Shown: piece after piece, positions 6,952 to 64,000 of the stretch
How positions within the stretch are numbered: position 1 is the first letter of the stretch
Layout of the letters: the number at the start of each line of letters is the position of its first letter
From: Bacteroidota bacterium
GTDB lineage: Bacteria; Bacteroidota; Bacteroidia; Chitinophagales; CAMDFR01
DNA length: 64,000 bases
NCBI GenBank assembly: GCA_037130135.1
Contig: JBAXTO010000001.1
Span: 147,813 to 211,812, forward strand
Direction of reading: 5' to 3'
Notes under the pieces: generated by a model
Databases searched by the model: none
Seen by the model: only the letters and a program-made list of their open reading frames with translations
Told to the model about the DNA's origin: nothing
Made by a program: the position numbers and the translations under genes

Positions 6952-7029
6952 ATTGTTTTTATTTGTATCAAGAAAGTAAATTCACTTTTTTTAAATTTAA
7001 AAATTCAGCATCTAGCATTCTATTGAATT

Positions 7030-7395
7030 TTATTTATCCCATTCTAAAGCACCTTTTTTCCATACATAAGCAAAACCTACTAAGAAAAAAAGCACAAACA
7101 TTACCACAGCAATAAATCCTTCAATACCTAAACTTTTAATATTAACAGCATAAGGGTAAAAAAAGATTACTTCTACATCAAATAGAACAAATAAAATAGC
7201 AGTAAGGAAATATTTTACACTAAAAGGTACTCTAGCATTACCAACCACATCTATACCACATTCAAAAGTTTCATCTTTTCTTTTTCCTTTACGAAAAGGG
7301 CCTAGCAGATGCGTTGCAACTAGAGTTACAACTACAAAGCCTAAAGCAACTGCTAATTGAAATACTAGAGGAAAATAATTATGAGGAGTATTCAT
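7030..7395 (-). CDS. nuoA: NADH-quinone oxidoreductase subunit A
   Basis: FECG, FVLFDVEVIF, WKKGALEW. Confidence 0.96.
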   Translation of the reverse strand: MNTPHNYFPLVFQLAVALGFVVVTLVATHLLGPFRKGKRKDETFECGIDVVGNARVPFSVKYFLTAILFVLFDVEVIFFYPYAVNIKSLGIEGFIAVVMFVLFFLVGFAYVWKKGALEWDK

Positions 7396-7430
7396 ATTTT
7401 ATTGGTCTATATAATTAGTTAAAAGCAATG

Positions 7431-7438
7431 CAAATCTA
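7431..7438 (-). promoter_or_regulatory. Bacteroidota -7 promoter box for the nuo operon
   Basis: TAGATTTG (TAnnTTTG) on minus strand, 35 bp upstream of the nuoA ATG; no -33 box at canonical spacing. Confidence 0.5.
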
Positions 7439-7517
7439 TAACATAAATAGAAACAAATATATTTTTTAGGAAATTAATTTCTATACATGTTTACATCAAA
7501 AATGTGGATTATTCAAA

Positions 7518-8501: not shown

Positions 8502-8592
8502 TTTCCTTATTTTAGAATGTAAAAATACTTTTTCTATACGATATAATAAATTTCATTAAGTACTATCTTTGGAGTTCATTTATGTTTAATTG

Positions 8593-10302: not shown

Positions 10303-10329
10303 AAAACTATAGTAATTAAGAAATAGATT

Positions 10330-12027
10330 TTATTTTTTTGAAGCTTCCTGAATTCGTTTCTGATAATATTCTTTTTCGGCTAAAGAACTATTGTTTAAGC
10401 TGATTGCTTTATTGAAATAATAGATTGCTTTTTCTTTGTTTTTTTGTCCACTATAATATCTACCTAAGATACCATATGTATCATAATAATCAGGGTTTGA
10501 GGCTATAAAACTTTTTTCAAAAGCGGCATCTATTTGCATTTTTGTGCCATGCATTGCCGCATGCGTAAAAGCTTGTTTTGCTTTTTTAAAGGCAAGATGA
10601 TTTTGATATAAAGGAGAATACAAAAAACTATCTGCAACAATTGTTTTAGTTGAATCATAAATGACGATATCTTTTTTTAAGCCTACATCGTTTTTGAAAA
10701 TATCGTCCAAATCATAACAAAGATATTCTCCAATTTGATAAGGTCCAACACTGATCCAGACTTTTAATTCATTGGGTTTGAAAATAATAGAATGATGACA
10801 AATTAATTGATTTAAGGCCATTTCATTGCCTAATCCAAGTGCTTCATGGTTTTTTCCATCTCGTTTACGTAGTATAGTTGCAACATCTAAATAATTTAAT
10901 TGAGAGTGACTTGCTAATTCTTTTTCAACGGTTTGATATCGATAGTTTGAGGTGCTATATTTGATATTCTCTTGATTTTCTCTTGTGTTTAAAAATGTAT
11001 CACTTTGAAAATGATTGGAGCAAATAATCTGGTTTTCAGAAGTGAGAAATAGGGCTGTTTTACTAGGAGATTTTTCAATGATTGCTGATTTTTTATCTTT
11101 CCATGAGCCTATTAAAATGCTTTCACTTACAAAGGTTTCACGTTTTTTTGCAATCGCAAATGCTTCATCAATAGTAGTTGCATATTGTAAAATTTCTCTA
11201 CTAAGTAGTGAAATAGGTGTTTTTGCTCCTGATGGATAATCGCTTTTGGAGGCATTTATGGTTATGGTTAATCCACTCGTATTCATACCAGATACAGTCC
11301 CAATCATTCCTCCCCAACTGATCATCATAAAATCTATCCCTTTATCAGGATGAATAAATTCGATGATTTTATTTTTGGCGAAACTATCACCCACATAAAA
11401 ATCGAAATTTCTACCGATAAGCATGCTAGAGTCACTGCATTTATTGCCCCAAACACCAAAAGAAGTACAACCTACTACCATATTCATTCCTTGTAATGCA
11501 TGACCAATATCATGCGCCGCATGGTAATTGAGTAATCGCTCATAGTTGGTACCAATAAAATCATACTTCTTACTAGCGCTTTTACTTACCCCATATATTT
11601 CTTGTAAGTATTCTGTGGGAATGTTTTCGTCAATATTACGATCAAAAAATTTAATCATATATTTCAGAAATTTCAAATAGGTGTTAGAAGGGATAATTTC
11701 TTTGATACTAGCTACAAAATAATCTTCTTGACTTTGAACCAATTCCTTTGATAATAGTCCATTTTTTAGTCCCATCTCGTAAGGATTATCAGCTTCTACA
11801 TACATCTCATATAATCCATACTTATTTTTTTTGATCCATGAATTATCAATTGTATAAAAGTTCTCAGCTACTTGTTTCCTTTCAAAGCTTTTATTAGAGC
11901 AGTTTGCAGGAACATCTATACGTGTTATCCAAATGAATAATAAACAGGATATGAGAATAAAAATAAAGGTGCCTACACTAAATCGAAAAAGATTTTTTAG
12001 GCTAAATATTTTTTTAAGTCTTTTCAT
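10330..12027 (-). CDS. C45 family peptidase / acyl-CoA:6-APA acyltransferase-like Ntn hydrolase with C-terminal TPR
   Basis: G-CTSF autoproteolytic Cys, IGRNFDF, SGMNTSGL, CSNHFQS; N-terminal TM; divergent from the TAL-KS-ACP genes. Confidence 0.8.
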   Translation of the reverse strand: MKRLKKIFSLKNLFRFSVGTFIFILISCLLFIWITRIDVPANCSNKSFERKQVAENFYTIDNSWIKKNKYGLYEMYVEADNPYEMGLKNGLLSKELVQSQEDYFVASIKEIIPSNTYLKFLKYMIKFFDRNIDENIPTEYLQEIYGVSKSASKKYDFIGTNYERLLNYHAAHDIGHALQGMNMVVGCTSFGVWGNKCSDSSMLIGRNFDFYVGDSFAKNKIIEFIHPDKGIDFMMISWGGMIGTVSGMNTSGLTITINASKSDYPSGAKTPISLLSREILQYATTIDEAFAIAKKRETFVSESILIGSWKDKKSAIIEKSPSKTALFLTSENQIICSNHFQSDTFLNTRENQENIKYSTSNYRYQTVEKELASHSQLNYLDVATILRKRDGKNHEALGLGNEMALNQLICHHSIIFKPNELKVWISVGPYQIGEYLCYDLDDIFKNDVGLKKDIVIYDSTKTIVADSFLYSPLYQNHLAFKKAKQAFTHAAMHGTKMQIDAAFEKSFIASNPDYYDTYGILGRYYSGQKNKEKAIYYFNKAISLNNSSLAEKEYYQKRIQEASKK

Positions 12028-12169
12028 AATTTTATAGATGCAAAACTACCTATTTAGCGAAAGATATGCTGTATTATAAAAAATTGTACAAAATATAATT
12101 TTAGCCTAAATATCAAATTAATATTCATTAATTTTGTATTACCAAAACTTTTTAAGGGACATTGTATAT

Positions 12170-13705
12170 ATGCAAATAGGCGTAAACAAACTATTACTTG
12201 ACGATTTAGAGAAAATATTATTTAAAAAAGAGTCGGTAGCCATTAGCGAAGAATCCAAACAAAAAATCAAAAATTCTTTTGATTTTTTGCAAGACTTTTC
12301 ACGAGATAAAATTATTTATGGTATCAATACGGGCTTCGGACCTATGGCTCAGTATAGAATTGAGGATAATGCTCGAGAGCAATTACAATATAATTTAATA
12401 CGATCTCATTGCTCTGGAAGTGGTAATCCTATATCCATGATTCATTCAAAAGCGGTGTTGATTTCACGTTTAAATACCTTAAAATTAGGTTATTCAGGTA
12501 TACATATTTCGGCTATTGAATTGATGACTGAAATGATTAATCTTGAAATTTATCCCGTTATATATGAACACGGTGGGGTAGGTGCCAGTGGTGATTTAGT
12601 TCAATTAGCACATGTAGCCCTTGCTCTGATTGGCGAAGGAGAGGTTTGGTGTCAAGGTCAAATCATGAAATCGAAAGATTGTTTTGAGGCACATCATTTA
12701 AAACCATTACAAATACACGTAAGAGAAGGATTAGCTATCATGAATGGTACTTCTGCCATGACAGGTATTGGTATTGTTAATTTGATTCATGCAAAAAAAT
12801 TAGCTCGTTTATCAGTAATTATTTCGAGCATGATTAATGAATTACTAGGCGCATACGAAGATCATTTTGGGGAAGAGCTAAATAATACCAAATTACATAA
12901 AGGTCAAATTCAAGTAGCGGCTCAAATGAAAAAGATTTTGACAGATAGTAGTATGATCAAACATCGCTATGAGCATTTGTATAATGGCAAACTCACGGAA
13001 GAGGTATTTGAAGAGAAAGTACAAGAATATTATTCCATTCGTTGTGTGCCTCAAATATTAGGAGCCATTGTAGATACTATTGCTACTTGTGAAGAAGTAG
13101 TGATCAACGAATTAAATTCTGCTAATGATAATCCTATCATCGATTTTGCTTCTAAAAATGTATATCATGGGGGCAATTTTCATGGTGATTACGTAGCATT
13201 AGAAATGGATAAACTTAAATTGGCTATCACAAAATTGTCGATGTTGATGGAACGACAATTGAATTATTTATTAAATGATAAATTAAATGCGAAACTTACA
13301 CCCTTTATCAATTTGGGTAAATTAGGGTTTAACTTTGGAATGCAAGGGATACAGTTTACGGCAACGAGTACTGTTGCTGAAAATCAGACCTTATCTACTT
13401 CCTCTTATATTCATAGTATTCCTAACAATAATGATAATCAAGATATCGTAAGCATGGGTTCTAATGCGGCATTAATCGCCTCTAAAGTGATTGAAAATAC
13501 ATATGAAGTATGTAGTATCGAATTGATGTCGGTTTTACAAGCTATCGATAGTTTAGGAATTAAAGATAAACTTTCGAGCTTTAATAAGAAATTTTACGAT
13601 GAAGCTAGAACCATAATACCAGTAGTGATTGAAGATAAACCAAGTTTTGAATTACTACGAAGTGTAAAAGCTTATTTAAAAGATAAAGAGTTTAACATTA
13701 ACTAA
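12170..13705 (+). CDS. Aromatic amino acid ammonia-lyase (HAL/PAL/TAL family), likely tyrosine ammonia-lyase
   Basis: MIO-forming GASGD; YGINTGFGPMAQY, LQYNLIRSH, QEYYSIRCVPQ, HGGNFHG resemble Flavobacterium TAL as recalled; ATG 12170 preferred. Confidence 0.85.
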   Translation: MQIGVNKLLLDDLEKILFKKESVAISEESKQKIKNSFDFLQDFSRDKIIYGINTGFGPMAQYRIEDNAREQLQYNLIRSHCSGSGNPISMIHSKAVLISRLNTLKLGYSGIHISAIELMTEMINLEIYPVIYEHGGVGASGDLVQLAHVALALIGEGEVWCQGQIMKSKDCFEAHHLKPLQIHVREGLAIMNGTSAMTGIGIVNLIHAKKLARLSVIISSMINELLGAYEDHFGEELNNTKLHKGQIQVAAQMKKILTDSSMIKHRYEHLYNGKLTEEVFEEKVQEYYSIRCVPQILGAIVDTIATCEEVVINELNSANDNPIIDFASKNVYHGGNFHGDYVALEMDKLKLAITKLSMLMERQLNYLLNDKLNAKLTPFINLGKLGFNFGMQGIQFTATSTVAENQTLSTSSYIHSIPNNNDNQDIVSMGSNAALIASKVIENTYEVCSIELMSVLQAIDSLGIKDKLSSFNKKFYDEARTIIPVVIEDKPSFELLRSVKAYLKDKEFNIN

Positions 13706-40584: not shown

Positions 40585-40693
40585 TAAAAAACCAAAAGGA
40601 AACGGAATAAGTCCCGAAGGGTGAAAGGCAAATACCAATAAAAAATAAAAGATTATTTGCCTTTCATTATGCCGTAGTCTTTTGGTTTTTTTA
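40585..40693. repeat. Long stem-loop repeat, copy 2
   Basis: Same outer arms as copy 1; different loop with inner hairpin TGAAAGGCAAATA...TATTTGCCTTTCA. Confidence 0.8.
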
Positions 40694-41747
40694 TCAGCGT
40701 GGGCTTGTGTGAGCCACCTAATTTTGCTGCACTTTTTATTTTTATTTTTTTATCCTCTTTTCAAAACTGTATTCAGGATTTCAATAAAAATTCCATTGAT
40801 AAAAACCGATTGGCTTAAATCAAAATCAATAGTCAAAAAACGAAATGTCTTTAGTGCGTTGGATTGGGGCTATATGTCGCAGAAAAAATAAAGCATACCA
40901 TATTGTAGTAGCGTAGGGAAAAAGCAAGTGTATGACTGAATGGAATGTTGCAAAAAGTGCGGAGGTGCTTGGAGTGGCTTGTAGCTTTTGCTTGTGTGTA
41001 ATTGCGTTTTTTGTAAATTATTTCAACACAAAAAACATTGTAGCGTAGGAAAAGCAAAAGCCAAGACACGGAAAGCAAAGGGTTGGTTTTGCAATATGGA
41101 ATGAGGGAATACTCTTGCTGTGCGGTGCAAAATAAATGGTGAAATGAATGGAAGTGTAATGTAGTGGAAGGTAGTGTAGCGAAGCGAAACGCTGTAACGA
41201 AATGGAACTGGAATGAATGAACCTTTTATTGCACATTGCCATCAACAACTAATGCTTTATTTTTTTCTGCACCGCTGAAAAGGGTGGTTGGGGTGTGTGG
41301 CTTTGGGGGGCTGTGCGGGGGGAGAAAAGACGGCTTCCATTTTATCAAAATGGCTATGGTATTGGCTATTTAACATAATGTTATTATGTGACAGCCTGTG
41401 CGGTTGGATGCTTGCATAAGCGATGGCAAAAGGCTGTGCGTAGCGAACACATAATGCCACATTATGTTATTTAGCTTCAGGCAGTTTTTAAACTGGCATA
41501 AGCGGAACGGTGGTGGTGGTTGGAGTGTAGCGTTTTTTTGTTGCTATGCTGTGTGTTGGCTTGGCTCTTTGGCTGTGGAGCAAAGCGGAACAGGCAATGT
41601 GCCAAATGCTTGGGAAGCATAGCCACAAAAAATATGACAGTTAAAAACTGACTGCAATACCATAGAGTGCTTTGAAGCGTTTGCCTTGTGTGGTGGCAAA
41701 GCACTAAGCCGTCTTTTCTGTGCGGTGGGTCGGGGGGAGATGTGAAG

Positions 41748-42425
41748 TTATTTAGGTAGTGAATTGTTTAAAATAAAACCAAAAGCCTTTTCTAATGTCT
41801 TTTCTCCAATTCCATCATAATTTGCTAAAGCAATCATTGAATTTGCTTCTCCGTTTTGGATAATCTCAGATATTTTTCTTGCGTATTGAGGTTGTATGCC
41901 TGTTTCTATTTTAATTGTCTTTTCGTCTAATGATAACCATTTTGCTTTAAAAGAAGCAAACAAATCGTCTTGAGCATTTGGATCATAGTCATAAATTTCA
42001 ATATCAATTGAGCATTTATTCAAATACTGGTCCATTAGTAATCTAACTTCGTTTGTGTCTAAACCACCATTGTGTGTTCCAAGTAAAGGAAAAGCAATTG
42101 AAGTAATTCCTTTTATTTCGTAAGTATCTACAAACTTTTGTAACCCTTGTTCAATCCACTCCATCTTACTTGGATATTTCCAATGAAACTTTGTTGGAAA
42201 ACTTAAAATCCAAGGAGCATTTTCTTGTTTTGTATAAAGCCACAAAGAACCGGTTTTTATTAGTTTTTTATTACAATAGTCTTTGTATTCTTCATACATT
42301 TTTGGATAGCGAAGTCTATGCACAAAAGCAATTCCTTTACCCATTACACCAACACAATTTACTGTGTTTACAATGGTTTGACACTTACTATTAAATATAT
42401 TCCCTTTTATGTGCTTTACTGCCAT
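41748..42425 (-). CDS. Macrodomain ADP-ribosylglycohydrolase, DarG-like antitoxin
   Basis: GNIF, VNTVNCVGVMGKGIA, SFPTK.HW, SIAFP.LG..NGGL; C-terminal HhH-like GIGEKT. Confidence 0.85.
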   Translation of the reverse strand: MAVKHIKGNIFNSKCQTIVNTVNCVGVMGKGIAFVHRLRYPKMYEEYKDYCNKKLIKTGSLWLYTKQENAPWILSFPTKFHWKYPSKMEWIEQGLQKFVDTYEIKGITSIAFPLLGTHNGGLDTNEVRLLMDQYLNKCSIDIEIYDYDPNAQDDLFASFKAKWLSLDEKTIKIETGIQPQYARKISEIIQNGEANSMIALANYDGIGEKTLEKAFGFILNNSLPK

Positions 42426-42471: not shown

Positions 42472-45400
42472 TTATTTCGCATAAACGAACCAACTTCTGC
42501 CTGATTCATCAATGAAATTCAAGTTAATTTTCTGATTTACATTTCCAAGTGATACATAAGAGTTAAAAACAATTTTGCCTTTATCTATTTTATTTACATC
42601 ACCAGAAAGTATCTCCATTTCACGCAGGTCAGATGTGCCATTCAAAACAAAATAACCGCTTCCTTTAAAGGATGTACTAATGTGCAATTCTGTTTCTTCC
42701 TCATCAATTCTTACTCTTGGATTTTCATTGTTGTAGTAACTGCTATCTACTACAATGTGTGTAAAAATATCCTTATGCTCACTTCCTATTAAATTTAAAA
42801 GTAAATCTCTGTCTGATGCAGACGGACACACTATTTCAAAATCACTCAGATCATTAAAAGAAAGCTCATCTTTAACTAAAAATTCTTGTTGAGCATAGTT
42901 TCTGTATCTATTGTAGTCTTCTTTTGTTGCATACTGTTGTGGGGTATAATACAAATCCTCAAAACCGAATTTATTTATCATTTTCGCTATACTACCAAAT
43001 TGCGTTGAACCAGTTTGCATATTTCCATTGCTGATACAACATTGCTCTTCATCTTTAAACAAAACTTCTTGAAGTGAAAATCTGAAAAAGATTGGGATAG
43101 GACATTTAGGGAATCCTAAACCTCTTGCTTTTTCATACCAAGAAACCCAGCCATAGTTTTTACTATCATAACCGTCTGATGTATTTTTTCCTAAAAATTC
43201 ATTATAAAACTGAGTTGGTGTATGCGGTCTGAAATAGAATCTGGCATAATCGTGAGCATCATTTCTCAAATGCACTACGTTACCAGCTGCATCACCCTTT
43301 ATAGTTGCTTTATTTCTGCTTTGTATTTTTCTGTTTTTAATTATTTCAACAGCATTGTCAATATGTGAAAAGTGATAGATGCTTCCTTTCCATTTAGACC
43401 ATTGTTGCTCAATTCTGTCAATAAAATTCAATGTTGAGGAATTATTTATTTCATTGTTAACATAATTGCCTAATAGTTCTTCAACTCGTTTATTGTTTTT
43501 AAGTGCTGTCCAATTCCAAAAGGGCTTAAACTCTTGAATAATTTCTACCGTAAAATCTATATTATTGTTAGATGAAATCAAATCCCATTCTAAATGGTCT
43601 TTGAATTGACTTAATACCTGGCTGTTTAATAGAAGTTTACCCGATTCACAAATAAAACGCCAATTCCATTTGTCTGCAAAACGTTCAATGAAAGCAATAT
43701 CAGTATAATTGATTTGGGGGTTTTCCGTAATGCTATGCCAATCCCATTTGTTTTCAAATTTGGCAAGTAGTTCTTTGGTTGGATTTAAACCAGAATGTTT
43801 TGAAAGGTATTCCCAATCTAAATCAAAATCTTTAGTTAGTGATAATAGCTCAATAGTTGGTACAAAAGATTTGTGCCGGGAAACTTTTTTCCAATTCCAA
43901 GGTTTTGATTTGGTTCTTTCAATAAATTCAGCATTAAATTCAATATTGGTATCATTGGATAAATATTCCCAATCCCAATCTTTATCTAATAATTGTAGAA
44001 ACGTCTCATTTGTAAAATCTATCTTTTTTCGTTGAGAGATAGCTTTCCAGTTCCAATTTTTGTTTTTAAGTTCAAGTATAAGTTCAATTGAAATTTCAGC
44101 TTTCTTATTTTCCGACAAAATTTGCCAATCCCAGTTTTTGTCTTTAGTAGAAAGAATCAAATCGCTATCAATAATGATGTCCTTCCTATTTGATAGTATT
44201 TCAAACTTAATTTTTGGAAACTGTTTTAAAATTTGTTCCAAATACTTTTCGTTGTCCCTTTTTTGCTGCAAAAGAAAACCACCAAACTCGGTTAAGTAAT
44301 CCCAATCCCAATTTTCACCTTTATACTTCTGTAATAGTAGTCTGTTGTAATTTATATTTCTGTTTTGAGATAAAACTTTCCAATCCCAGTTGTTGTCAAA
44401 TTTTTGCAGGTAGCGGTCAATATTGCTAAACCATTCTTTGCCACTATTCCAGCTTTTAGGATTAAATTTTTGTTGAATAGCATTGTTTTCAGATAAAACC
44501 GACCAGTTGATTTTCTCTTTGAATCGGTTTAATGTTCCAAAATCAGTAGGAAAATGTATGTGATTTGAGATATAAGCCCAATCCCATTCAAAAACATCAA
44601 ATTGGTAAGTTGCATTTACAATAGGGAACAAAATACTAAATGGATATTTTGTCGTAAGTAGATGCCAAATTAACTTTCGGTTTTCGGATTGTAAATGAGA
44701 TAATCTATAAGCTATTTTTAGTTCCTGATTTTCAAAAACTATTTCATCTCTATAAACTTCATTTATTAAATATTCCCAATCAATAAAAGTAGATAATACA
44801 TCTATGTTTTCAAGAATAGTTTCTTTGTCTAGTTTTCGGGTTGCAATTTTCCAATCCCACTTTTCAAACAAATCTATATCATCAAAACTATCAAGAATTG
44901 ACACTTCTGTGCTGTTCTCTGTAATGAATGTCCAATCCCAAGGAAAATGGCTGTTTGCAAAAATGTATACTTGTTCTTCTTTTTGTGTTAGAGAAACCCA
45001 AAACTGAGATTGTTTTTCGTTGTTTGTTGCATTGTTAAACGATTCTAAGTTTTTGTTCCAAAACGATACATCAAAAGTTGATTGCGATAAAATTTCTGAC
45101 CAGAGTAGATTGTTTGAAAAAGAAAACTCGCCAACAAAAGCACTTTCAATAAAAGGCAGGTTGTCTATTAGATTCTTGTTTTTTGATACTCCTTCCCAAT
45201 TCCAAGCAAAATCAGGAAATTCTTCAATCAAACTGTAATCTGAAATTTGTTTGCTTACATTTAAAAAGCCTGCCTCTGTTGTTATACGGCTATTATATTT
45301 TACAAAACTTGTATTATCCCATTCTACATTTTCGTTGGTATCAAAACCATTGATGTATGCTTTACTTTCCCATTGTATCAGATTTTGCTGTTCAAAGAAA

Positions 45401-46893
45401 TCAATTAGGCTTGTTGTCCAGAGATATTTTTGGTGAGCAACAACGAAGTTGTCGGGCAAATACTGTTTTAAGAGTGACTTAAAAGACTCTTCCTTCAAAC
45501 ATTTGGCAATTATCTCTGCGTTATTGAACAAGCGATATAAAACAATGTGCCAATCTAATTTACTTGCAAATGCTGAAATGTTTTTATGAAGAAAATTAAG
45601 ATTGATTTCTTCTGAAATAAATCGCCAATTCCAATTCTTTGAAATGAGAGTATCAAGTTTATCCTTGTATTTGATAAATATGTTTTTGAAAACTTCATTT
45701 TTACTAACCGTTATTTCGTAGAAATCCCAAGCGAAATCTTCAATGTGTTCTTCAATAAATTTATCAGGTAGATTTTTCGACAAATAATTCCAGTCCCAAT
45801 CACAGACTTTAAGAGCAGGAATAGAAAGTAGCGATATTACAAACTCTGTTTCTTTGTATGAAATTTCTTCAAAATCCCAATTGTAGTTTTCAATGTGTTC
45901 ATTTATGAAATTATTATCAAATCTCTCTGTTAACTTACTCCAGCTCCAATATTCTGGATAAAGATGAATTACTGATTTGATACTTTCAACAGGTGCTTTT
46001 TCGGAAATGTTACTCCAAACACTACCATCCCCATTTTCAAGAAATAGTTTGAAAACGTTTTTATCGTTCCAATCTGTTTTGGGATTCTCTGCAAGTTCTT
46101 TCCAATTCCATAAGTCAATATATGTTTCAATGTCTTTTACACTAATTGAATTATTCTCTGAAAGAATGTGATGATACATTCCTCTCCGTATCAACTTGCT
46201 TTTAAGTTCTTCATTTTCGGGCAAGTCAATTAGTAATTGAATATCGGGTTTGTTTATCCCTCCTTTGTAAATGGTAAGTTGAAATGAATTGTCAATTTCA
46301 AAAGGTTCACATTCTAATGAAATGCTCTTGTAACTAATGTATTGATCCGTTTGGTACAACTCAATAATTTCGCCTTTATAAATGTCGCTACCGAAAAGCT
46401 GTAATTGAAGTTTTTGCTTTAATTGAGGATTGTCAAATATTTCTTTTGTGATTTCTCTTTCGTGAGATAGACTATTTTCTATGTCGAACAGACTTTTGAA
46501 TGAAAAATCTAAACTTTCACCAGTGGCAGTTTGGTTTTCTAATAGTTCGGTTGCTGCAAAATAATACTTGTATTTTAATTTGCTTTGTAGAGCATCTTGA
46601 CCAAAATCAGTTAGAAGGATTACTTCTTTGTCTATTTCAATTAAATTATATTCTGTAAGCCCTTTCAGATAAATGTTGAATATATCTGTTTCTGCCAGGT
46701 CTTGTAAATTAAAACCTAATAGATGACATAATTCTGAAAATTCAATGTTATTCCCTTTCGCATTGATGATTGAACAAAATGTCTCGTCAATTACATTGAT
46801 GTCAAAAGCCTTTCTGTACCTTATTTTGTAAGAAGAAGATTTAACCGACCATTCAAATGGAAATGATGTATATGTTTTTTTAATGCTATCCAT
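42472..46893 (-). CDS. Trp-repeat protein with C-terminal DarT (DUF4433-like) ssDNA ADP-ribosyltransferase domain
   Basis: C-terminus YHFSHIDN, HDYARFYFRPHTPTQF, ISNGN, AQQEFLV (catalytic Glu position); centre has roughly 25-30 W[DN]WxxLS-type repeats. Confidence 0.8.
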   Translation of the reverse strand: MDSIKKTYTSFPFEWSVKSSSYKIRYRKAFDINVIDETFCSIINAKGNNIEFSELCHLLGFNLQDLAETDIFNIYLKGLTEYNLIEIDKEVILLTDFGQDALQSKLKYKYYFAATELLENQTATGESLDFSFKSLFDIENSLSHEREITKEIFDNPQLKQKLQLQLFGSDIYKGEIIELYQTDQYISYKSISLECEPFEIDNSFQLTIYKGGINKPDIQLLIDLPENEELKSKLIRRGMYHHILSENNSISVKDIETYIDLWNWKELAENPKTDWNDKNVFKLFLENGDGSVWSNISEKAPVESIKSVIHLYPEYWSWSKLTERFDNNFINEHIENYNWDFEEISYKETEFVISLLSIPALKVCDWDWNYLSKNLPDKFIEEHIEDFAWDFYEITVSKNEVFKNIFIKYKDKLDTLISKNWNWRFISEEINLNFLHKNISAFASKLDWHIVLYRLFNNAEIIAKCLKEESFKSLLKQYLPDNFVVAHQKYLWTTSLIDFFEQQNLIQWESKAYINGFDTNENVEWDNTSFVKYNSRITTEAGFLNVSKQISDYSLIEEFPDFAWNWEGVSKNKNLIDNLPFIESAFVGEFSFSNNLLWSEILSQSTFDVSFWNKNLESFNNATNNEKQSQFWVSLTQKEEQVYIFANSHFPWDWTFITENSTEVSILDSFDDIDLFEKWDWKIATRKLDKETILENIDVLSTFIDWEYLINEVYRDEIVFENQELKIAYRLSHLQSENRKLIWHLLTTKYPFSILFPIVNATYQFDVFEWDWAYISNHIHFPTDFGTLNRFKEKINWSVLSENNAIQQKFNPKSWNSGKEWFSNIDRYLQKFDNNWDWKVLSQNRNINYNRLLLQKYKGENWDWDYLTEFGGFLLQQKRDNEKYLEQILKQFPKIKFEILSNRKDIIIDSDLILSTKDKNWDWQILSENKKAEISIELILELKNKNWNWKAISQRKKIDFTNETFLQLLDKDWDWEYLSNDTNIEFNAEFIERTKSKPWNWKKVSRHKSFVPTIELLSLTKDFDLDWEYLSKHSGLNPTKELLAKFENKWDWHSITENPQINYTDIAFIERFADKWNWRFICESGKLLLNSQVLSQFKDHLEWDLISSNNNIDFTVEIIQEFKPFWNWTALKNNKRVEELLGNYVNNEINNSSTLNFIDRIEQQWSKWKGSIYHFSHIDNAVEIIKNRKIQSRNKATIKGDAAGNVVHLRNDAHDYARFYFRPHTPTQFYNEFLGKNTSDGYDSKNYGWVSWYEKARGLGFPKCPIPIFFRFSLQEVLFKDEEQCCISNGNMQTGSTQFGSIAKMINKFGFEDLYYTPQQYATKEDYNRYRNYAQQEFLVKDELSFNDLSDFEIVCPSASDRDLLLNLIGSEHKDIFTHIVVDSSYYNNENPRVRIDEEETELHISTSFKGSGYFVLNGTSDLREMEILSGDVNKIDKGKIVFNSYVSLGNVNQKINLNFIDESGRSWFVYAK

Positions 46894-49800
46894 TCTGTAC
46901 TACTGCTTTTTGTAATTCTTCGGCATTAATTATTTTTTGCATTTTGTCATATACATTATTATAAATTGGTTTTTGGCAAAAATGCTCACTGTTTCCAACT
47001 ACAATTAGCAAACGTTTTGCCCTTGATAAAGCAACATTTAATCGGTTGGGAGATTCAGCGAAACCTAAACTTACTTGTGCTGGATAACCCAAAACAGGGT
47101 ATAAGTTATAATCTGGTTGTTGTCCTTGAAAAGCTGCAATTTTATTGCTACGGACCATCGAAACAATAATGATGTTTCTTTCCATTCCTTGAAATCTATC
47201 AACAGTGCTTAATCGTATTAAATTTTCTTTGTCATTAATTTTCCCCTTCCCCTTATACAAGTCAGTATGATTTTGTACAAGCATTTGTTCTATATAATTT
47301 ATTTGTTTGCCATAGAAGCTAATAAGGCCGATTTGTTTTTCTTCTTGGGATTTATTGGAAAGCCATTTATCAAACTCACTTTTACCTTCGCTGTTTTTAA
47401 GTACTTGGAGAATTTTGTCAATCGCATCAATTTCTCCAAAATTGACTCTTGATGTACCTTCTTGGATTTCTGGAGTATTTACGTTTATCCAAATTGTATG
47501 CGTTTCGGGTGTAATGAGGTTTTCGTATTTTAAACCGTGATACCTTGAATCCCATTTGACAAATGAATTGTGATATGCTTCATCAGGCGGTAGACCACAT
47601 AACAATCCCTTTTCACTATCTTCTGTATAAAATTGTGCAATTACATCATTGATAGCAGGGTGCATTCGATACTGGGTATCAAAAGTTCCTTTTATGCTTT
47701 CATCAATATGAGTAAATAATCTTTCAAATTGTGATGTTTCAAATTCCTTCTGGGAAAGTGCTTTGGCTAATGCCTTTTCACCTATTGAAACAAGAATATC
47801 TTTGATTTCTTCACCGTCAATCATTGGCGGTAATTGTCTGTGGTCACCTACGATAATGGATTTCTTTCCATATAAAACAGGCAAAGCAAGTTCAGGTGGT
47901 GTCGCTTTACTTGCTTCATCCATAATAATAGTGTCAAAATTTATGTCTGTACGATTACAACTTTTAAAATCATTTTTTTCATAGCTTTCTTTATTGAAAA
48001 CATTTAGATATGAACGAAAAAAGGATGTCCATTTGTTTTCAGAATTTAATTTACCAATGGAACTACCGGTTGCCCCAATCAGATTTACATATTCTAAGTA
48101 TTTATCTGCAAATAGTTTTTTAGTATCGCTGGTTGGGTTCTGTAAATATGATTTCCAATTATTTAATGCAGAATTTATTTGTTCATCTTCTTGTTGTGTA
48201 ATACGATTTACAATATTGTCTACCCAATGAGAAACAGTATTATTTTGTGTTGCATTGCTTTTCTCCCAGTTCTTTATAGCCTCAAGTGAATAAAAATACC
48301 CTTCCGATTCTAAATTTTCTGTGTTTCCGAAACGAATGGGTTTTACAATGTTGTTTTGGTTGTTTTTTAATCTGTCAATGGCATTATCAACTGCAAGATT
48401 TGTTTCAGAAGTCAAAAGTATTTTTGTTTTCTTTTTCTCCTTTTGAGCCACTCTAATGTGTTGCCAAATTATTTCAGCTATTGCTGTTGATTTGCCAGTA
48501 CCAGGAGGACCTTGTATTAAAGCTAATTCTTCGGCATAAAGCGATTTGTAAATAGCTTGTCTTTGAGATTCATTCAATGATTCTGAAAAAAGATTGCTTT
48601 CAAACTCCTGCCACTCAACACTTGTTTTGTTTAATAAATACTCAATGTTTTCAATTTTTTTAGCCTTTGATGAGTCATATAGAAATACTTTAGCATTATC
48701 ATTAGGCAATCGAGATTTCTCATCGTCAAGTTTAAGAACTGTATCTTCTAATCGTTTTATTTTATCCTTTTCTCCTTTTAATTCTGGAAAAACTGCCTTT
48801 ATTTTTTCTTGACTGATGTTTTCTTCTACCTCTTGAAGTTTGTCTTCATCCACTTTAAAATATAAATCGGGATAATCTACTTTTTGTAATTTACCTAAAT
48901 AGAACTTCTCTTGGGTAGTTCCGAAATAAAAATCTTCCCTTAAAAGGTTTGACAACTTTTCTTCTTCTTGTTCAACTTTTAATTCAAAGTTTTCTTCACA
49001 AAGGTATTTTTCTTGAAAAGTGTCGTGTATAGTATAACTGAAATTTTCAGAGCCAGTAAAATAGTCGTCTAACTGATTTATTAATCTTGAAAGAACTTCT
49101 GTTTTATTCCCTGTTTGATAAAAGTGCCTGAATATTAGCTTCTCGCCATTTGAAATTAATTTTGTATTTAGGTCTGGAACAAAACTTTTCAAATTAGCCT
49201 GCAATTCTTGTAAGCCATTATCAAATTTTATATTGAATTTGTACTTGTGATTTTCTCCTCTGTCGTAAATTTCTAAGTAAGGAATAGACTTAATTTTATT
49301 TAACTTCTCATTTAGTTCGTCCTCTGTTTCAAAGTCAAAGTAAATAGCATCAAAAGTATTGTCAAGTCTAAATAAATCGCTTTCCTCTTTGGATTGAAAA
49401 TTAAGCTGAAATTGAGTTTGATTGCTTTCAAGAAAACTGTCATAAAATGCATTGTACTTTGCACCATTATCAAAGGAATAAAAAAATTTATACTCAATCT
49501 TATATTTGTTGTTTTGAAAGTTTGTATCGAGAATCCTTTGAATATCATACTTAGCATCATCAAAAGAGTTTTGACCAATTTTTTTCAGTTTTCTTTTCTC
49601 TAATCTTATCAATAAATGATTATCGAAAGTTTTATGTGGATGATAATTTGTGTTTTCTCTAAAAAATGTATTTGCTTCTTCTAAGGGGTCCTTGTCTTCA
49701 ATAATGTCAAATTTTATTAAGATCATTATTTGCTTTAAACTTAGATTCAAATTTGATTTTAGATATTCAAATACTTCATTGGGCAATTCTTCAGATGTAG

Positions 49801-50383
49801 CTAAATCATTATAATCCTCAAGAAAGAATTGTTTTCCAAATATTGTTTCAGTTATGAACTTTATGGAAGGCTTTATATTGAACCTAGCAGTTGCTTTTTT
49901 GCCAATTTTTATCCCTCTTATAGCAGTTGCTTTTTTCCATTCTTCTGTTGTTAAATGGAGTTGCCCTAATTTTATGAAATTTACAGTTGTTGGAAGCTCT
50001 CCAATAATGGCTTTTAATTCTTCTTTTGAATTGTTACTTGCAGCTGTGACTACACCCTCGATAACTGGATTATCGTTAAAGTCAATGTAACAGATTTCAG
50101 CTAACTCTTTTAGGTTGGTAAGCTGTTCCTCTTTGATATTTGTTGTATTATCAACGCTTGTTTGAATATACCCACTGGAAAAATCAAAGTCTTTGACTTT
50201 AAAAATTTGTTCAACTTCCTTTTTAAATACTTGTTTGAAAATTTCCTGGTCAATGGAAAGGTGCAGTTTCAAACCGTCCAACTGAACTGCTTTTGAGGTA
50301 TCAATTCCAATAGGTTTAGATTTATGCTCTAAAATTTTAGATTGTGCCGTAATATATTTTTTCCAAATTTCTCTCTGGTTCAT
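46886..50383 (-). CDS. SF1 helicase, Upf1/DNA2/NAM7-like (AAA_11/AAA_12), with long N-terminal extension
   Basis: QGPPGTGKS, SETNLAVDN, MDEASKA, VGDHRQLPP, QYRMHP, TVDRFQGMER, NRLNVALSRAK. Confidence 0.9.
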   Translation of the reverse strand: MNQREIWKKYITAQSKILEHKSKPIGIDTSKAVQLDGLKLHLSIDQEIFKQVFKKEVEQIFKVKDFDFSSGYIQTSVDNTTNIKEEQLTNLKELAEICYIDFNDNPVIEGVVTAASNNSKEELKAIIGELPTTVNFIKLGQLHLTTEEWKKATAIRGIKIGKKATARFNIKPSIKFITETIFGKQFFLEDYNDLATSEELPNEVFEYLKSNLNLSLKQIMILIKFDIIEDKDPLEEANTFFRENTNYHPHKTFDNHLLIRLEKRKLKKIGQNSFDDAKYDIQRILDTNFQNNKYKIEYKFFYSFDNGAKYNAFYDSFLESNQTQFQLNFQSKEESDLFRLDNTFDAIYFDFETEDELNEKLNKIKSIPYLEIYDRGENHKYKFNIKFDNGLQELQANLKSFVPDLNTKLISNGEKLIFRHFYQTGNKTEVLSRLINQLDDYFTGSENFSYTIHDTFQEKYLCEENFELKVEQEEEKLSNLLREDFYFGTTQEKFYLGKLQKVDYPDLYFKVDEDKLQEVEENISQEKIKAVFPELKGEKDKIKRLEDTVLKLDDEKSRLPNDNAKVFLYDSSKAKKIENIEYLLNKTSVEWQEFESNLFSESLNESQRQAIYKSLYAEELALIQGPPGTGKSTAIAEIIWQHIRVAQKEKKKTKILLTSETNLAVDNAIDRLKNNQNNIVKPIRFGNTENLESEGYFYSLEAIKNWEKSNATQNNTVSHWVDNIVNRITQQEDEQINSALNNWKSYLQNPTSDTKKLFADKYLEYVNLIGATGSSIGKLNSENKWTSFFRSYLNVFNKESYEKNDFKSCNRTDINFDTIIMDEASKATPPELALPVLYGKKSIIVGDHRQLPPMIDGEEIKDILVSIGEKALAKALSQKEFETSQFERLFTHIDESIKGTFDTQYRMHPAINDVIAQFYTEDSEKGLLCGLPPDEAYHNSFVKWDSRYHGLKYENLITPETHTIWINVNTPEIQEGTSRVNFGEIDAIDKILQVLKNSEGKSEFDKWLSNKSQEEKQIGLISFYGKQINYIEQMLVQNHTDLYKGKGKINDKENLIRLSTVDRFQGMERNIIIVSMVRSNKIAAFQGQQPDYNLYPVLGYPAQVSLGFAESPNRLNVALSRAKRLLIVVGNSEHFCQKPIYNNVYDKMQKIINAEELQKAVVQNG

Positions 50384-60700: not shown

Positions 60701-61381
60701 AAATTGCACTACCCAACGAGGGGTATAAACCTGGCTTTGAATGCTTACTTTGTTGTATTCTGTTTTTTCGCCACTTAGTTTATGGGCTGCTTTTTTGTAA
60801 TTGTTATAGCTTTCGTATAACCAACCCAATACATCATCACTCTTCCAAATTTCTGTTTCTACTTGTGTATCGGTTTCTACCTGATTAAAGGCATTGATGA
60901 TGCCTTGCAATTCTAATGCTGTAGGCAGCAAATGATAAGGGTGCTGAGGACTGAATAAAGGAATATCGGAAGCTAATTTTTGTAATTGGTCTTCCAGGAA
61001 AAGCAGCAAGCCTTCGGCTTCTTCATTTCTTGCATTGGGGTTTTGCTCTAACCAAGCCAAATGAGCAAAGGAACGACCACCGTGGCTTTCTCTTCGGGTT
61101 ACAATTTCGGGGTGCAAGGTATGAGCTTCCATTACTTTGAGAGCCGCCAAACGATTGAACAACGTAAAGGTGAGTTCCTCCACCAACTTCTCGTAAGCAT
61201 CTGCCACAGTGCCTGTTTCTGCAATAAACACCTCACGGATGGTTTCCATACGTTTGCGTTCAGCAGGCATATTTTCAATGGCTGTCAATTGCCCTTCATT
61301 TATACCCATTCTGCCCAAGCGATTGCGAAAGGCTTGGTCAATGAGTTGGCGTATATGTTCTACGTGTTCGCTAAGTTTCAT
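57707..61381 (-). CDS. pglX: BREX-1 adenine methyltransferase PglX (BrxX)
   Basis: TLFNRLAALKVME, LGWLYESYN, QVYTPRWVV, DPSTGSG, ANPPY, KGGPYNKWYGN, LDDGVGKNI. Confidence 0.93.
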   Translation of the reverse strand: MKLSEHVEHIRQLIDQAFRNRLGRMGINEGQLTAIENMPAERKRMETIREVFIAETGTVADAYEKLVEELTFTLFNRLAALKVMEAHTLHPEIVTRRESHGGRSFAHLAWLEQNPNARNEEAEGLLLFLEDQLQKLASDIPLFSPQHPYHLLPTALELQGIINAFNQVETDTQVETEIWKSDDVLGWLYESYNNYKKAAHKLSGEKTEYNKVSIQSQVYTPRWVVQFLVDNSLGKLYLEMYPDSEIRNKYKIANAPTSQTRERKPLHEIGMIDPSTGSGNYLLYGFDMYYDLYIDQIENYGADYNEADVPKLIIENNLHGVDLDDRAIQLAQLGLYIKAKRKKRTAKIEHFNIVSSDFFLPAYNDVKDIFEDGNVGERERKIIEDLWEDLQNAHKFGSLIRLEEKLNLKWFGTKDKNDHNQVTLFGQQEMEGFETFRNAFFTNLQKAVAQNTAKQGQTFLNTKTQDAITFLQLLTQKYDVAVANPPYTDGADFGPELKKFIEANYKQPYKFNSNLYAVFIKRCFELTTENGKIALIHPLTFMYIKTFEDVRKFILEKTHISVFVDYGLSNLFGTVMVDPAFYVLEKGNDKQEKSWFISLDQYTRTPNEKFKKDFCLEALDDNISNRPNKHNITLPQEKLKIIEGWPFIYWISDGFREKFTEKALDEILKPRQGIATGNNDKCVRHWWEVEQSELSVEVNDEKKWKFYSKGGPYNKWYGNFWTVINYSPSGYDFLLNSGNHLPSRNFYFLEGATYSASGSKGVSFRYMPTNLLFDVGGSCIFPGEFKNVKYYLSFLNTKLTFYIADCLNPTVNTQVGDLKRIPFVIPSKKIENTISLLATVNIDVKRNFCSYRITETNYGQSPLIAFQGAALKDRVLAYLNYENVQHTQVLINEAIINELIFEVYELSDADREQVETKMGLSIGLLAVLKEAKEAFLAQLQNPIAEVNEHIQNLPITTFEEQRVREIKEAFATLYQSNNDLEEFCIRHQVNPINVWYWFKEANTVPAARASEIALEFLADAIRTLLQQDDDGIIPLVGLPGEEALSQRLEQHCLQNGFTAAQYMQLDSLLGRSVNEYLEHHFFNQLSNHLNLFMYLPKTPFIWHLSSGQQQGFEAFILIYKWNRDSLFKLKSHYISHRVQNLEYRQITLQDVNTAQAQTEKETIRLQLQEIKLFTTKIDELIAEGYDPKLDDGVGKNIAPIQKKGLLRGEVLKANQLTKYLNADW

Positions 61382-61382
61382 A

Positions 61383-64000
61383 TTAGTTAATTTCTATTTC
61401 ATCATTATCCGATGCACTTGCCAATTTTTGCAATTCACCCTGCAACCAAGTTTTGTATTCAGCCACTTTCATTTTTGAAGTTGGCATTTTAACCGCATAC
61501 TTTTTTACTGTGGGTGTTGGAGGCGTTCCGGGTTGTGGTTCGGGTGCTTTCGTTTTGATTAAACTGGCTTTAGCAATTTCAATTTCTGCCTTTTTGCTTG
61601 GATACAAGTCAATGAATGAAAGCACTTCGGAATAGGTGAAACGACTTTGTTTGTCTTTTACATCAAAATCAATCGTAATAGCAGAAAGGGTTCTTTGCTT
61701 TGCGTATTGATTAAGTGCAGTGGCTTTAGATGATGCAACTGTATTAAGTCCAGCAGGCAATGTTTCAATTTCCTTAATTAGTTCAGTTGCCAAAGCATCA
61801 ATCTCAGTGTATTTAGCAGCACAATCTTTCATAGCAGTACTAAACAGTTGATGGTATTCATCTTTTGTTTTTTGTGCTGATTGCTGAAGGGATGCAAAAT
61901 TTTTAATTACATCACCAGTTAAATGGCTGTCGAAATCTGCTCTGAGTTGCTGTATTGCTGCATTACTCATTGCAGCTTTGGTTAATTCGTCCTCTACTGC
62001 AATAATAAATGCCTTCCATTCTTTTACTTTTGAAAGGTTGTTTCTGATGAACTTCTCTACTTTTTCAATATCCTGCAAGGCTATTAGAAAAGCATCTTTA
62101 GCAGCTAAAAATTCAACCGCCTTGTCAATGTAGTTTGCTTCGCTTACTGCACCTGTAAAACCGCCAATAAAGGTGGCGTTTTCATCAGCCTTTGGAAATA
62201 ATTTATCAAATTCTTTCTCGCTGTTACGCAGTGTAGTTACTTTATCAGCAAAGTGCTTGGCTGTATCTCTAACGGCTGAAACCAATTCAAAATCATTGGT
62301 ATTGTAATCTATTTTATGGCCTATATATTTTTCGGCTTCAATATCCAACAGGAATTGAGCTAACTCTTGTTTTTGCAATGCTGATAGCGATTTAGAAACC
62401 GCTTTGAAAGTTGCTCTACGAAACTCCCTGGCTGCATTAAAAATGGCAGGTACACCATCATCACGCCAAGAGAATTTTTCTACTCCGTTGTATTTGGCAA
62501 TAACTTTTCCTGCTCTCATTAAAGCTGCCACAGAAGATATAACCGTACCGAATGTAAAGCCCGCAGGTGGTTGTTCTAAATCTTTTTCAAGAGTTGTTCC
62601 GTCAACAAACGTGTTTCTAATCTTGTACAATATTTCTTCGGCAACCTTTAGGTTTTCACCAATGAAATTGCCCTGAGCATCAAAAAAGGCAAAGTCACTA
62701 CCAGTAAAGTACTGTTGCAATCTTGCATTATTGGCTTCTTTAATAACCGCAGCAGCTACACTGTCGCTTAATTGTGAACCTAAACGCTTGCTGTACACAT
62801 TCTGTATAATTTGCTTCTGTTGAGTTTGTAGGGTTGTTTGCCAATTGTCTTTATTTAATTGCAGGGTATTGTATAAATAAATGGCTGTAGCATTTAGCAA
62901 AGAATCTTCCACCAAATCCTTAATACGATTTTGCTTTTCACCTTTGGCAGTTGAAAAACTAATCAATATTTTACCTTCTTCAGAATTTGGATTGTTGTAT
63001 TTCTGCTCTAAATAAGTAGTGCGTTCTACTTCATCAATCAAGCGGTCTAACTCTTTAAAATAACTATTGTCTGGCACTAACCACAACAGGTCTTTATCGT
63101 TTTGATGCTGCACCTTTAATGCATCAATATCTGTGGTACGGCTGTCTGAAATATTGTAAACGCTTTTTACTTTTAATTTTAAGTATTTCAGATTGGGTGT
63201 AGTTAGTTCATCATCATTATCGGTAGTGATAAAGAAATCATACTGTAAGCCAGTATCGGTTACTTTGGCTATTGTTTTTGTAAACTGGGCTGCTTTGTAT
63301 GCAGTTACTAATTGCTTCTTTTTAACGAAGCCTTGAACGGTGAAACCGTTCATTTCATCCAACAACCTTTGTTCAATATCGGACGTGATGCGGTAAGTTT
63401 TGTTGGTATCTAACAATACTTTCGCCTCTGTCAATACTTCAAGTGCCTTTGTTATATCATCCTGTACTTTGAACTGATCGTCAGGGTCGCTGATGAAGGA
63501 TTTAATGATGTTGGGCAAAGTAGAAGGAGTAACTTCCGCTTCGGTTAAGAAATTGATGGTTTCTAAAAGTTTTCTTCCAGAAATAGATGAACCTGCTTCG
63601 GACAAAATACGTTCTGCATTATCGTAACGGCTTACCAAACGAACTGGAGGCTGTGGCTGACCTTCTTTAGCTATATGCCATCCTGTAACTGTGTGAAACA
63701 AATCCGTGTGCTGAACTTCCTGCTTTAAAATATCGTAGGTAGTTATAATCATTCCCCTTGCTGCTACTTTAGTAGAAGCATAACCCTTTGTACCAAAGAG
63801 AAAGTTTTGAAGCAAGTCGAACTGATACTTGTAAAAAGGGTAATAAGTGGCGTAGTTATCTGCACTATCTGTTTTGCTGATACCTGCACCGTGAATTGAG
63901 GCGTGGTCGGCAATTTTGCCTGAATTTTTTTTGTAATGGTCAGTCAATTTTTGAATACCTGTTTCGGTTTTCTTTAAAAGCCTGTTACGAATAATTACAC
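61383..64000 (-). CDS. brxC: BREX system P-loop ATPase BrxC (5' part outside window)
   Basis: Frame open past 64000 (VIIRNRLLKKTE..); YYPFYKYQF, LEQPPAGF; directly upstream of pglX. Confidence 0.85.
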   Translation of the reverse strand, partial: VIIRNRLLKKTETGIQKLTDHYKKNSGKIADHASIHGAGISKTDSADNYATYYPFYKYQFDLLQNFLFGTKGYASTKVAARGMIITTYDILKQEVQHTDLFHTVTGWHIAKEGQPQPPVRLVSRYDNAERILSEAGSSISGRKLLETINFLTEAEVTPSTLPNIIKSFISDPDDQFKVQDDITKALEVLTEAKVLLDTNKTYRITSDIEQRLLDEMNGFTVQGFVKKKQLVTAYKAAQFTKTIAKVTDTGLQYDFFITTDNDDELTTPNLKYLKLKVKSVYNISDSRTTDIDALKVQHQNDKDLLWLVPDNSYFKELDRLIDEVERTTYLEQKYNNPNSEEGKILISFSTAKGEKQNRIKDLVEDSLLNATAIYLYNTLQLNKDNWQTTLQTQQKQIIQNVYSKRLGSQLSDSVAAAVIKEANNARLQQYFTGSDFAFFDAQGNFIGENLKVAEEILYKIRNTFVDGTTLEKDLEQPPAGFTFGTVISSVAALMRAGKVIAKYNGVEKFSWRDDGVPAIFNAAREFRRATFKAVSKSLSALQKQELAQFLLDIEAEKYIGHKIDYNTNDFELVSAVRDTAKHFADKVTTLRNSEKEFDKLFPKADENATFIGGFTGAVSEANYIDKAVEFLAAKDAFLIALQDIEKVEKFIRNNLSKVKEWKAFIIAVEDELTKAAMSNAAIQQLRADFDSHLTGDVIKNFASLQQSAQKTKDEYHQLFSTAMKDCAAKYTEIDALATELIKEIETLPAGLNTVASSKATALNQYAKQRTLSAITIDFDVKDKQSRFTYSEVLSFIDLYPSKKAEIEIAKASLIKTKAPEPQPGTPPTPTVKKYAVKMPTSKMKVAEYKTWLQGELQKLASASDNDEIEIN

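Follow-up and report, generated by a model that had tools for sequence, protein, structure and literature searches.

The window analysed here is a stretch of 64,000 nucleotides (nt) from contig JBAXTO010000001.1 of a Bacteroidota bacterium. Its minus strand carries a cassette of three genes, which encode in the order of transcription an Upf1/MkoA-like helicase, a giant protein with a DarT ADP-ribosyltransferase domain, and a small protein in which a DarG-type macrodomain is joined to a helix-hairpin-helix (HhH) domain (Table 1). This text is concerned with the giant protein and the cassette to which it belongs. The protein is built of four parts, namely an N-terminal domain, a Trp-rich repeat array of about 880 amino acids (aa), the DarT domain and a C-terminal domain of about 93 aa.

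Table 1. Positions of the cassette, its domains and the adjoining genes in the window
Feature	Position (nt)	Strand	Basis or remark
Giant DarT fusion protein, 1473 aa	42472..46893	minus	open reading frame (ORF), middle gene of the three-gene cassette
N-terminal domain, aa 1-260, long beta-hairpins around a winged helix, net charge -16	46114..46893	minus	AlphaFold2
MarR-type winged helix-turn-helix, aa ~29-106	46576..46809	minus	VIA-align wide search
Trp-rich repeat array, aa 261-1140, ~22-25 units of ~26 aa	43474..46113	minus	motif counts, repeat hidden Markov model (HMM), unit consensus
Predicted DarT ADP-ribosyltransferase domain, aa ~1165-1380	42754..43401	minus	Pfam PF14487
C-terminal domain after DarT, ~93 aa	42475..42753	minus	conserved in most relatives
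Superfamily 1 (SF1) Upf1/MkoA-like helicase, 1165 aa (P0003)	46886..50383	minus	Pfam, PADLOC, NCBIfam
DarG-type macrodomain (aa ~3-152) and HhH (aa ~175-218), 225 aa (P0002), presumed antitoxin or eraser	41748..42425	minus	Pfam, PADLOC, NCBIfam
pAgo, 690 aa	50399-52471	same as cassette	PADLOC PDLC02385, E 4e-254
PDC-S18/DUF5655 candidate protein	52486-53391	same as cassette
BREX set BrxL, PglZ, PglX, BrxC	53408-63998	same as cassette	BrxC runs past the window end

The DarT domain and its conserved neighbour genes

The sole family match in the giant protein was to Pfam PF14487 at aa 1173-1376 (E 7.9e-16, 58.8 bits, cut-off 22.5). When aa 1171-1473 were searched alone, the score was 67.3 bits (E 2e-18, profile positions 1-190 of 201), and no other Pfam family appeared there at E <= 10. 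In the search of the own genome the same domain scored 64.1 bits, and the PADLOC DarT profile matched the giant protein at E 1.4e-7. The Pfam match spans nt ~42766-43377, in agreement with a sequence-only reading of this DNA that had placed DarT motifs at ~42720-43390 and expected the C-terminal part to match DUF4433; this part matches PF14487 above the cut-off.

The DarT domains of 11 family members were aligned with MAFFT to 15 canonical DarTs of ~210-240 aa from Bacteroidota genomes. From the motif IYHFSHIDN (aa 1172-1180), the residues IYHFSH (aa 1172-1177) aligned with the canonical YRxTH, ARFYF (Y1220) aligned with PFYF, SNGNMQ (aa 1288-1293) with TDGHA and QQEFLV (E1337) with QAEFLV. 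The ARTD-type H-Y-E motif is present in this alignment with the 15 canonical DarTs, and the aligned motif residues vary little or not at all among the 11 family members. Schuller et al. (2023) describe a Tyr in the H-Y-E motif together with a macrodomain antitoxin as the DarT2 pattern, and a Ser at the Tyr position together with a NADAR antitoxin for DarT1. The family has an insert of its own at aa ~1235-1268 with an invariant PKCP (aa 1262-1265), and this insert could alter the substrate of the enzyme.

Canonical DarTs of Bacteroidota lie in open frames of mostly 205-242 aa, in keeping with the small size that had been assumed for them in the sequence-only reading. When 401 Bacteroidota genomes were sampled, 35 had a DarT match, and in only 3, including this genome, was it found in an open frame of more than 1400 aa. 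Short relatives of the DarT clade (121-385 aa) gave 33 matches, 27 of them with PF14487. Contigs of less than 4 kb hold 19 of these 33 sequences, and two are NCBI records marked as partial; no record bears the name of a canonical stand-alone DarT. Judged from these records, the short relatives appear to be mostly fragments of the giant family.

The C-terminal domain was matched by tblastn in 13 loci with identities of 33-100%. A type IX secretion tail was considered for the last 93 aa and rejected; no such family matched at E <= 10, and the segment is internal in the longer relatives, where an HD-like domain comes after it.

The helicase has its core at aa ~600-1150 with the Walker A sequence GPPGTGKST (K631), and the Walker A columns are invariant. 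It matched AAA_11 (E 5e-36) and AAA_12 (E 2e-37) in Pfam, MkoA (PDLC03920) in PADLOC at E 2.7e-93, and the IGHMBP2 family in NCBIfam at E 2.5e-58, which is under the cut-off of that model. Its N-terminal ~590 aa matched no family. The stop codon of the helicase gene and the ATG of the giant gene share 8 nt (ATGGATAG), and the helicase is a strictly conserved neighbour. The sequence-only reading, which took the two genes to be translationally coupled, had proposed that the N-terminus of the giant protein docks on the helicase. A complex prediction with aa 1-590 of the helicase and aa 1-260 of the giant protein gave a score of 0.00, which weighs neither for nor against binding.

Downstream of the giant gene, after a gap of 46 nt, follows the gene of the macro-HhH protein. 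This protein matched the Pfam families Macro (E 4e-13) and HHH_3 (E 6e-4). The PADLOC DarG profile was matched at E 6e-54 over positions 2-150 of 329 only, and the NCBIfam antitoxin_DarG at E 6.4e-52 over positions 2-154 of 338 (176.9 bits, cut-off 250). The C-terminal, DarT-binding half of DarG was not found in the 225 aa of the protein, and the HhH stands in its place.

We then counted both neighbours in the relatives, taking in a locus only where its DNA extends to the side in question. In 18 reference-genome family loci, the helicase was found upstream in 16/16 and the macro gene downstream in 14/14. Two distant genomes, with repeats ~23-25% identical, had both genes (2/2 each) and gene boundaries that overlap as in the window. 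Among eight IMG/VR contigs, four of which are near-identical to each other, the counts were 7/7 and 7/7. A Hymenobacter plasmid relative of 22% identity had the helicase (1/1) and no macro gene (0/1). In total, the helicase was present in 26/26 and the macro gene in 23/24 relatives, down to ~22% identity. No fourth conserved gene was found in the reference-genome loci, where the other shared frames are antisense shadow ORFs. A tblastn search of a phage collection gave no match.

A search with the N-terminal region of the helicase gave 241 relatives at E <= 1e-3, compared with 215 for the giant protein at the same threshold in a 90%-clustered collection. Among the matches listed (120 of 241), the helicase relatives are 727-1243 aa long, mostly 1136-1177 aa; none of these 120 has a PLD or kinase family, and their precomputed Pfam matches are to helicases and ATPases only. 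Several helicase relatives lie on contigs that match contigs of the giant protein in length.

On the plasmid of Hymenobacter sp. NBH84 (L052, NZ_CP043645.1), positions 3703-12376 hold the distant helicase and a DarT protein of 1691 aa, followed by a hypothetical gene of 98 aa and flanked by transposases and an integrase. In L017 (5558-13428) the cassette is decayed; its helicase and giant genes are split into several ORFs and the macro gene is intact.

The N-terminal domain and the repeat array

No match was found for aa 1-1170 of the giant protein in Pfam, NCBIfam or PADLOC, and the N-terminal domain (aa 1-260) had none in Pfam even at E <= 10. The whole protein matched no sequence of a solved structure at E <= 1. 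With a full-length family profile, two cytochrome c oxidase subunit 4 chains of the PDB appeared at E 0.005-0.007 through Trp-rich stretches and were taken as spurious; the same profile also reached the solved DarT 7omv at E 0.87. The giant protein has an overall isoelectric point of 5.0. Net charges of -16, -17 and -19 make the N-terminal domain and the first two thirds of the repeat array strongly acidic.

AlphaFold2 models were made of aa 1-260 and aa 780-1170, each from an alignment of 45 sequences that included relatives of ~20-25% identity. For aa 1-260, the mean predicted local distance difference test (pLDDT) was 93.0 and the predicted template modelling (TM) score 0.79. The VIA search with this model found MarR-type proteins, with the MepR-like 4xrf_A on aa 31-105 at Z 10.7 (root-mean-square deviation (rmsd) 1.3 A, 68 residues aligned) and MarR 5h3r_A at Z 10.6. 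There were 72 chains at Z >= 8, and among the matches listed (50) all aligned to aa ~24-108, one of them to 169. Foldseek likewise returned winged-helix proteins only, weakly (E 0.03-0.2, ~75 columns). For the beta-rich rest of the domain (aa 1-28 and 107-260) neither Foldseek nor VIA gave a partner, in a VIA list that a single domain can fill. The best hit in the ESM Atlas, at 0.80, is at a chance-prone level and serves as a lead only.

The sequence-only reading had called the N-terminal ~250 aa winged-helix-like on account of three motifs, which lie at aa 55-61, 79-86 and 94-102 and thus within the winged-helix segment. This held for aa 29-106, which are modelled as MarR-type, but not for the remainder, which had no match. 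A MarR-type fold in the model does not imply DNA binding. Because the N-terminal domain is acidic we do not take the winged helix as DNA-binding, and with the early array acidic as well it may not contact nucleic acid.

The repeat has the core W-[DN]-W-x-x-[LI]-S-x-N in a unit with the approximate consensus E-L-I-x-x-F-K-D-K-x-W-D-W-x-x-L-S-x-N-x-x-I. The strict pattern W[DN]W..[ILV][STA] occurred 13 times, while 2000 shuffled versions of the protein gave a mean of 0.0125 and at most 1. With a looser pattern there were 24 occurrences, 22 of them within aa 262-1101, and shuffles of the whole protein gave a mean of 1.3 and a maximum of 7. Of the 58 Trp residues of the protein, 54 fall in aa 261-1170. 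The array is irregular with insertions over aa 261-780 and regular over aa 911-1140 (nt ~43474-44163), where nine units are spaced 24-27 residues apart, mostly 26. When an HMM was built from the regular units in the C-terminal part of the array, it found 18 units but not the degenerate ones towards the N-terminus; the number of repeats given in Table 1 was therefore taken from the motif counts. The array itself had been recognised correctly before, and the part called most regular, 43480-44560, corresponds to aa ~778-1138. The numbers had to be corrected, from 25-30 repeats to ~22-25 and from a spacing of 22-25 aa to the one measured in the regular part.

In the model of aa 780-1170 (pLDDT 94.5), short helices follow one another in a chain with two to each 26-residue unit, and the second helix of a unit begins at the second Trp of W-D-W. 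The earlier suggestion of a solenoid agrees with this model. The array matched no Pfam or NCBIfam profile, and neither Pfam Ank nor other repeat profiles matched the giant protein. Foldseek found nothing at E <= 1e-3 for the repeat model, the best matches being designed PPR and armadillo proteins with TM scores of 0.1-0.3. In the VIA wide search, ankyrin-type solenoids scored Z 5-8.4 with an rmsd of 8.8-12.6 A, which is below the bar of the tool for repeats; the top matches were a DARPin (6mol_A, Z 8.4, rmsd 12.6 A), AnkB (5y4f_A, Z 7.4) and the ankyrin sensor of RNase L (4g8k_A, Z 5.7). Like ankyrin and other alpha-solenoids, the repeat is modelled as a superhelix of paired short helices. Its unit differs, having ~26 aa with the W-[DN]-W-x-x-L-S-x-N core, whereas an ankyrin unit has 33 aa. 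The best ESM Atlas hit of the repeats (0.86), in a cluster that is 20% DarT-bearing and labelled Nucleocytoviricota, is again at a chance-prone level and a lead only. As judged from the model, the array is probably a helical solenoid of a repeat type that has no profile in the libraries searched; we do not claim a novel fold.

Across the same loci, the array diverges about as fast as the helicase (55-82% compared with 60-89% identity). Its length is near-constant: DarT starts at residue 1147-1242 (median 1175) in 119 close relatives, and at residue 1126-1507 (median 1258) in 54 distant ones.

Proposed function of the cassette

DarTG is a defence system in which an antitoxin keeps a small toxin in check. 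The cassette resembles DarTG2 in its PF14487 domain, where H-Y-E aligns and the Y position is a Tyr, in the DarG-type macrodomain gene next to it and in its site in a defence island. It differs in the size of the toxin, 1473 aa instead of ~210-240 aa, with the N-terminal domain, the ~880-aa array and the C-terminal domain added. The DarT clade is also a different one, with the PKCP insert, a score under the NCBIfam equivalog cut-off and no close stand-alone relative. In the macro protein the HhH takes the place of the C-terminal half of DarG, and an obligatory helicase gene is added.

The Mokosh preprint (Millman 2022) describes the same class of helicase paired with a nuclease effector. With Mokosh type I, which consists of MkoA and the PLD protein MkoB, the cassette shares the COG1112/Upf1-like helicase with its AAA_11/AAA_12 core and MkoA match, and a two-gene layout of sensor-helicase and effector. 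The effector is DarT, however, and a dedicated macrodomain eraser accompanies it. None of the three proteins of the cassette matched a PLD family at E <= 0.01, nor was the Ser/Thr kinase of Mokosh type I among the Pfam matches of the helicase at that threshold. In Hachiman, the HamB helicase is reported to restrain the HamA nuclease and to release or activate it on sensing abnormal DNA. The likeness to Hachiman would be one of mechanism only, a helicase with a toxic effector, while the helicase family and the effector differ. By analogy, the chemistry may be like that of DarTG2 and the pairing of helicase and effector like that of Mokosh or Hachiman.

From these comparisons of genes and domains we propose that the giant ORF encodes the effector of a conserved helicase-DarT-macrodomain cassette, a helicase-coupled variant of DarTG2 most likely serving in phage defence. 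We give this reading a probability of about 0.6. The helicase and the giant protein would form one complex. The helicase would recognise phage nucleic acid or translocate on it and expose single-stranded DNA, on which the tethered DarT would ADP-ribosylate thymidines and block phage replication. The acidic N-terminal domain and the solenoid would be a scaffold of fixed size that keeps the toxin inactive or in position until the helicase is engaged. The macro-HhH protein would bind DNA by its HhH and strip stray ADP-ribose from the host DNA. Because the C-terminal half of DarG is missing, this protein would act enzymatically and not by clamping DarT; according to Schuller et al. (2023), the C-terminal part of DarG is thought to bind DarT.

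Several points weigh against this proposal. The DarT domain is remote from the characterised DarTs. It does not reach the NCBIfam equivalog toxin_DarT (NF048013; 15.7 bits, E 0.0092, cut-off 150), and the profile of the domain reaches the solved DarT 7omv only at E 0.47, with the His and Tyr N-terminal motifs alone. By its sequence it is a member of the family and not an equivalog; substrate and base specificity are therefore putative, and the activity is that of a predicted DarT. Upf1-like helicases work on RNA as well as on DNA, and the supply of single-stranded DNA is therefore only one possibility. The acidic residues of the N-terminal domain and of the first two thirds of the array argue against DNA binding there. 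Our structure models of the giant protein are limited to aa 1-260 and aa 780-1170. Finally, the macrodomain is not always next door, as the Hymenobacter plasmid relative without an adjacent macro gene shows.

More tentatively, the three genes may constitute a distinct defence system, widespread in Bacteroidota, that is Mokosh-like with DarT in place of the PLD nuclease, and the repeat may represent an unmodelled solenoid family that is reused in conflict proteins. Here, the Upf1-like helicase would meet phage nucleic acid and then switch on or deliver the solenoid-tethered DarT. The repeat unit would be reused as a sensor or scaffold in the kinase, PLD, UvrD, ankyrin and methyltransferase-like fusions described below. 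A literature search found neither a giant DarT fusion nor a cassette of helicase and DarT in any title or beginning of an abstract, although supplementary tables could list such variants. In public records the relatives bear no other names than 'DUF4433 domain-containing' or 'DarT family'.

The recognition step could also reside in the giant protein itself. The solenoid, with the N-terminal domain, would then be a sensor that binds a phage protein and releases DarT, and the helicase would be an accessory, for example in targeting or recycling. In NLR/Avs-type systems, repeat domains bind phage proteins in this way. The sequence-only reading had proposed such sensing, or autoinhibition of the toxin, for the repeats. 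The solenoid model agrees with such a role, as do its nearest structures, which are ankyrin-type and include the RNase L sensor (Z 5-8, large rmsd). The acidic array fits a protein-binding rather than a DNA-binding surface, and the fusion of the repeats to kinase, ankyrin, UvrD and PLD elsewhere suggests a portable recognition module. However, the structural matches are under the tool's bar for repeat proteins, and the helicase is conserved as strictly as the effector. The array is not hypervariable either; its identity follows that of the helicase and its length is near-fixed, which counts in sequence terms against a fast-evolving sensor and leans slightly towards a scaffold. We consider the sensor unlikely on balance.

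It is more doubtful that the cassette is a toxin-antitoxin module for growth control or addiction that stabilises the island or regulates replication like the chromosomal DarTG of Mycobacterium, with no phage defence. DarT does adjoin a DarG-type macro gene, growth-control roles of DarTG are mentioned by Schuller et al. (2023), and the cassette of L017 is fragmented, as dispensable modules are. Against this, the neighbours in the window and in the distant relatives are mostly defence genes, the cassette was found on IMG/VR contigs and on a plasmid, and a helicase of 1165 aa with an extension of 1170 aa would be costly for simple addiction. Quite improbable is an assignment of the cassette as the effector arm of the neighbouring pAgo, or as a secreted polymorphic toxin with macrodomain immunity. 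A pAgo gene does end 15 nt before the helicase in the window, and one also precedes the cassette in L001 (3432-5492). These are, however, the only two of the 18 family loci with pAgo upstream, and none was detected upstream of the cassette in L052-L062. The pAgos of the window and L001 are 46% identical, whereas the cassettes are 96-100% identical. We rejected the pAgo as a functional part of the cassette on these grounds; the differing pAgos at one position suggest the replacement of neighbours at a hot spot. The layout would suit a polymorphic toxin, with the toxic domain close to the C-terminus and an immunity-like gene next, but no secretion-related family matched any part of the protein, and in longer relatives the domain that follows DarT lies inside the protein.

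The toxin on a structured extension of 1170 aa and the constant Mokosh-type helicase suggest that this DNA ADP-ribosyltransferase is controlled and aimed in another way than in DarTG. Automatic pipelines would probably call the locus a plain DarTG or a 'DUF4433 protein' and miss the helicase and the array. A naturally tethered, helicase-guided DarT could also interest the users of DarT2 as a DNA-editing tool, a use that has been reported.

Relatives, variants and surroundings

The extension (aa 1-1170) was compared with 1.84 billion representatives at 50% identity, which gave 1280 matches at E <= 1e-3, of which 82 reach E <= 1e-30. Most of the 1280 come through the repeats. With 1280 clusters the repeat is common and it has no Pfam or NCBIfam model, so a description of it would annotate many proteins. 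Among the matches listed, 55 of the 64 with at least 1100 aa have DarT after the array. The sequence-only reading had asked for other effectors, such as PLD, on homologous N-termini; nearly all full-length relatives carry DarT, and PLD occurs with the repeats alone. P0189 (1430 aa) has the N-terminal domain and the repeats, with a GCG-type methyltransferase-like C-terminus (Methyltransf_31 at E 0.002, under the cut-off) and no DarT. In other proteins the repeats alone are fused to a protein kinase, ankyrin repeats, a UvrD helicase or PLD.

Near-pure repeat proteins were seen in Flavobacterium (L020, 7401-10461; L019, 146-2260). One of 547 aa overlaps the end of a PLD-DnaJ gene, and one of 704 aa had no Pfam match.

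Within the family, the toxin part can differ from the rest. In L004 (12523-13083, P0013), the DarT is 39% identical to that of the window, while the N-terminal domain is 95% and the repeats are 82% identical; the C-terminal domain was not detected in this locus. The pattern looks like a swap of the toxin module within the family, as far as can be judged from the identities.

Many relatives have an HD-like domain of ~235 aa with the motif 'HDIGK' after the C-terminal domain, sometimes after a leucine-rich insert. It was found in L002, L005, L006 and L010, where the giant ORF has 1709-1729 aa, and in P0006, P0014 and P0119. The match to Pfam HD is weak (E 0.03). In L003 (11341-12498) a gene of its own, sited after the macro gene, encodes the HD-like domain in fusion with a PIN domain. 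A tblastn search for the domain in the window found nothing, with a best E of 0.43.

The cassette of the window stands directly after BrxC, PglX, PglZ and BrxL, which make up the BREX set, PDC-S18 and pAgo. These genes share one strand and are separated by 14-16 nt. Genes found beside distant members of the family encode a restriction-modification enzyme of the MmeI type, an integrase, a helicase resembling UvrD, and PLD-HA and HEPN proteins. Neither an Rfam family nor a tRNA was found when the window, including 40640-41747, was scanned for them. This stretch of 1.1 kb after the macro gene holds no ORF of at least 80 aa, and its minus strand is C/A-rich. The GC content is raised there to 0.38-0.40 with a strong skew, and the same stretch is also present in L001 and L011.

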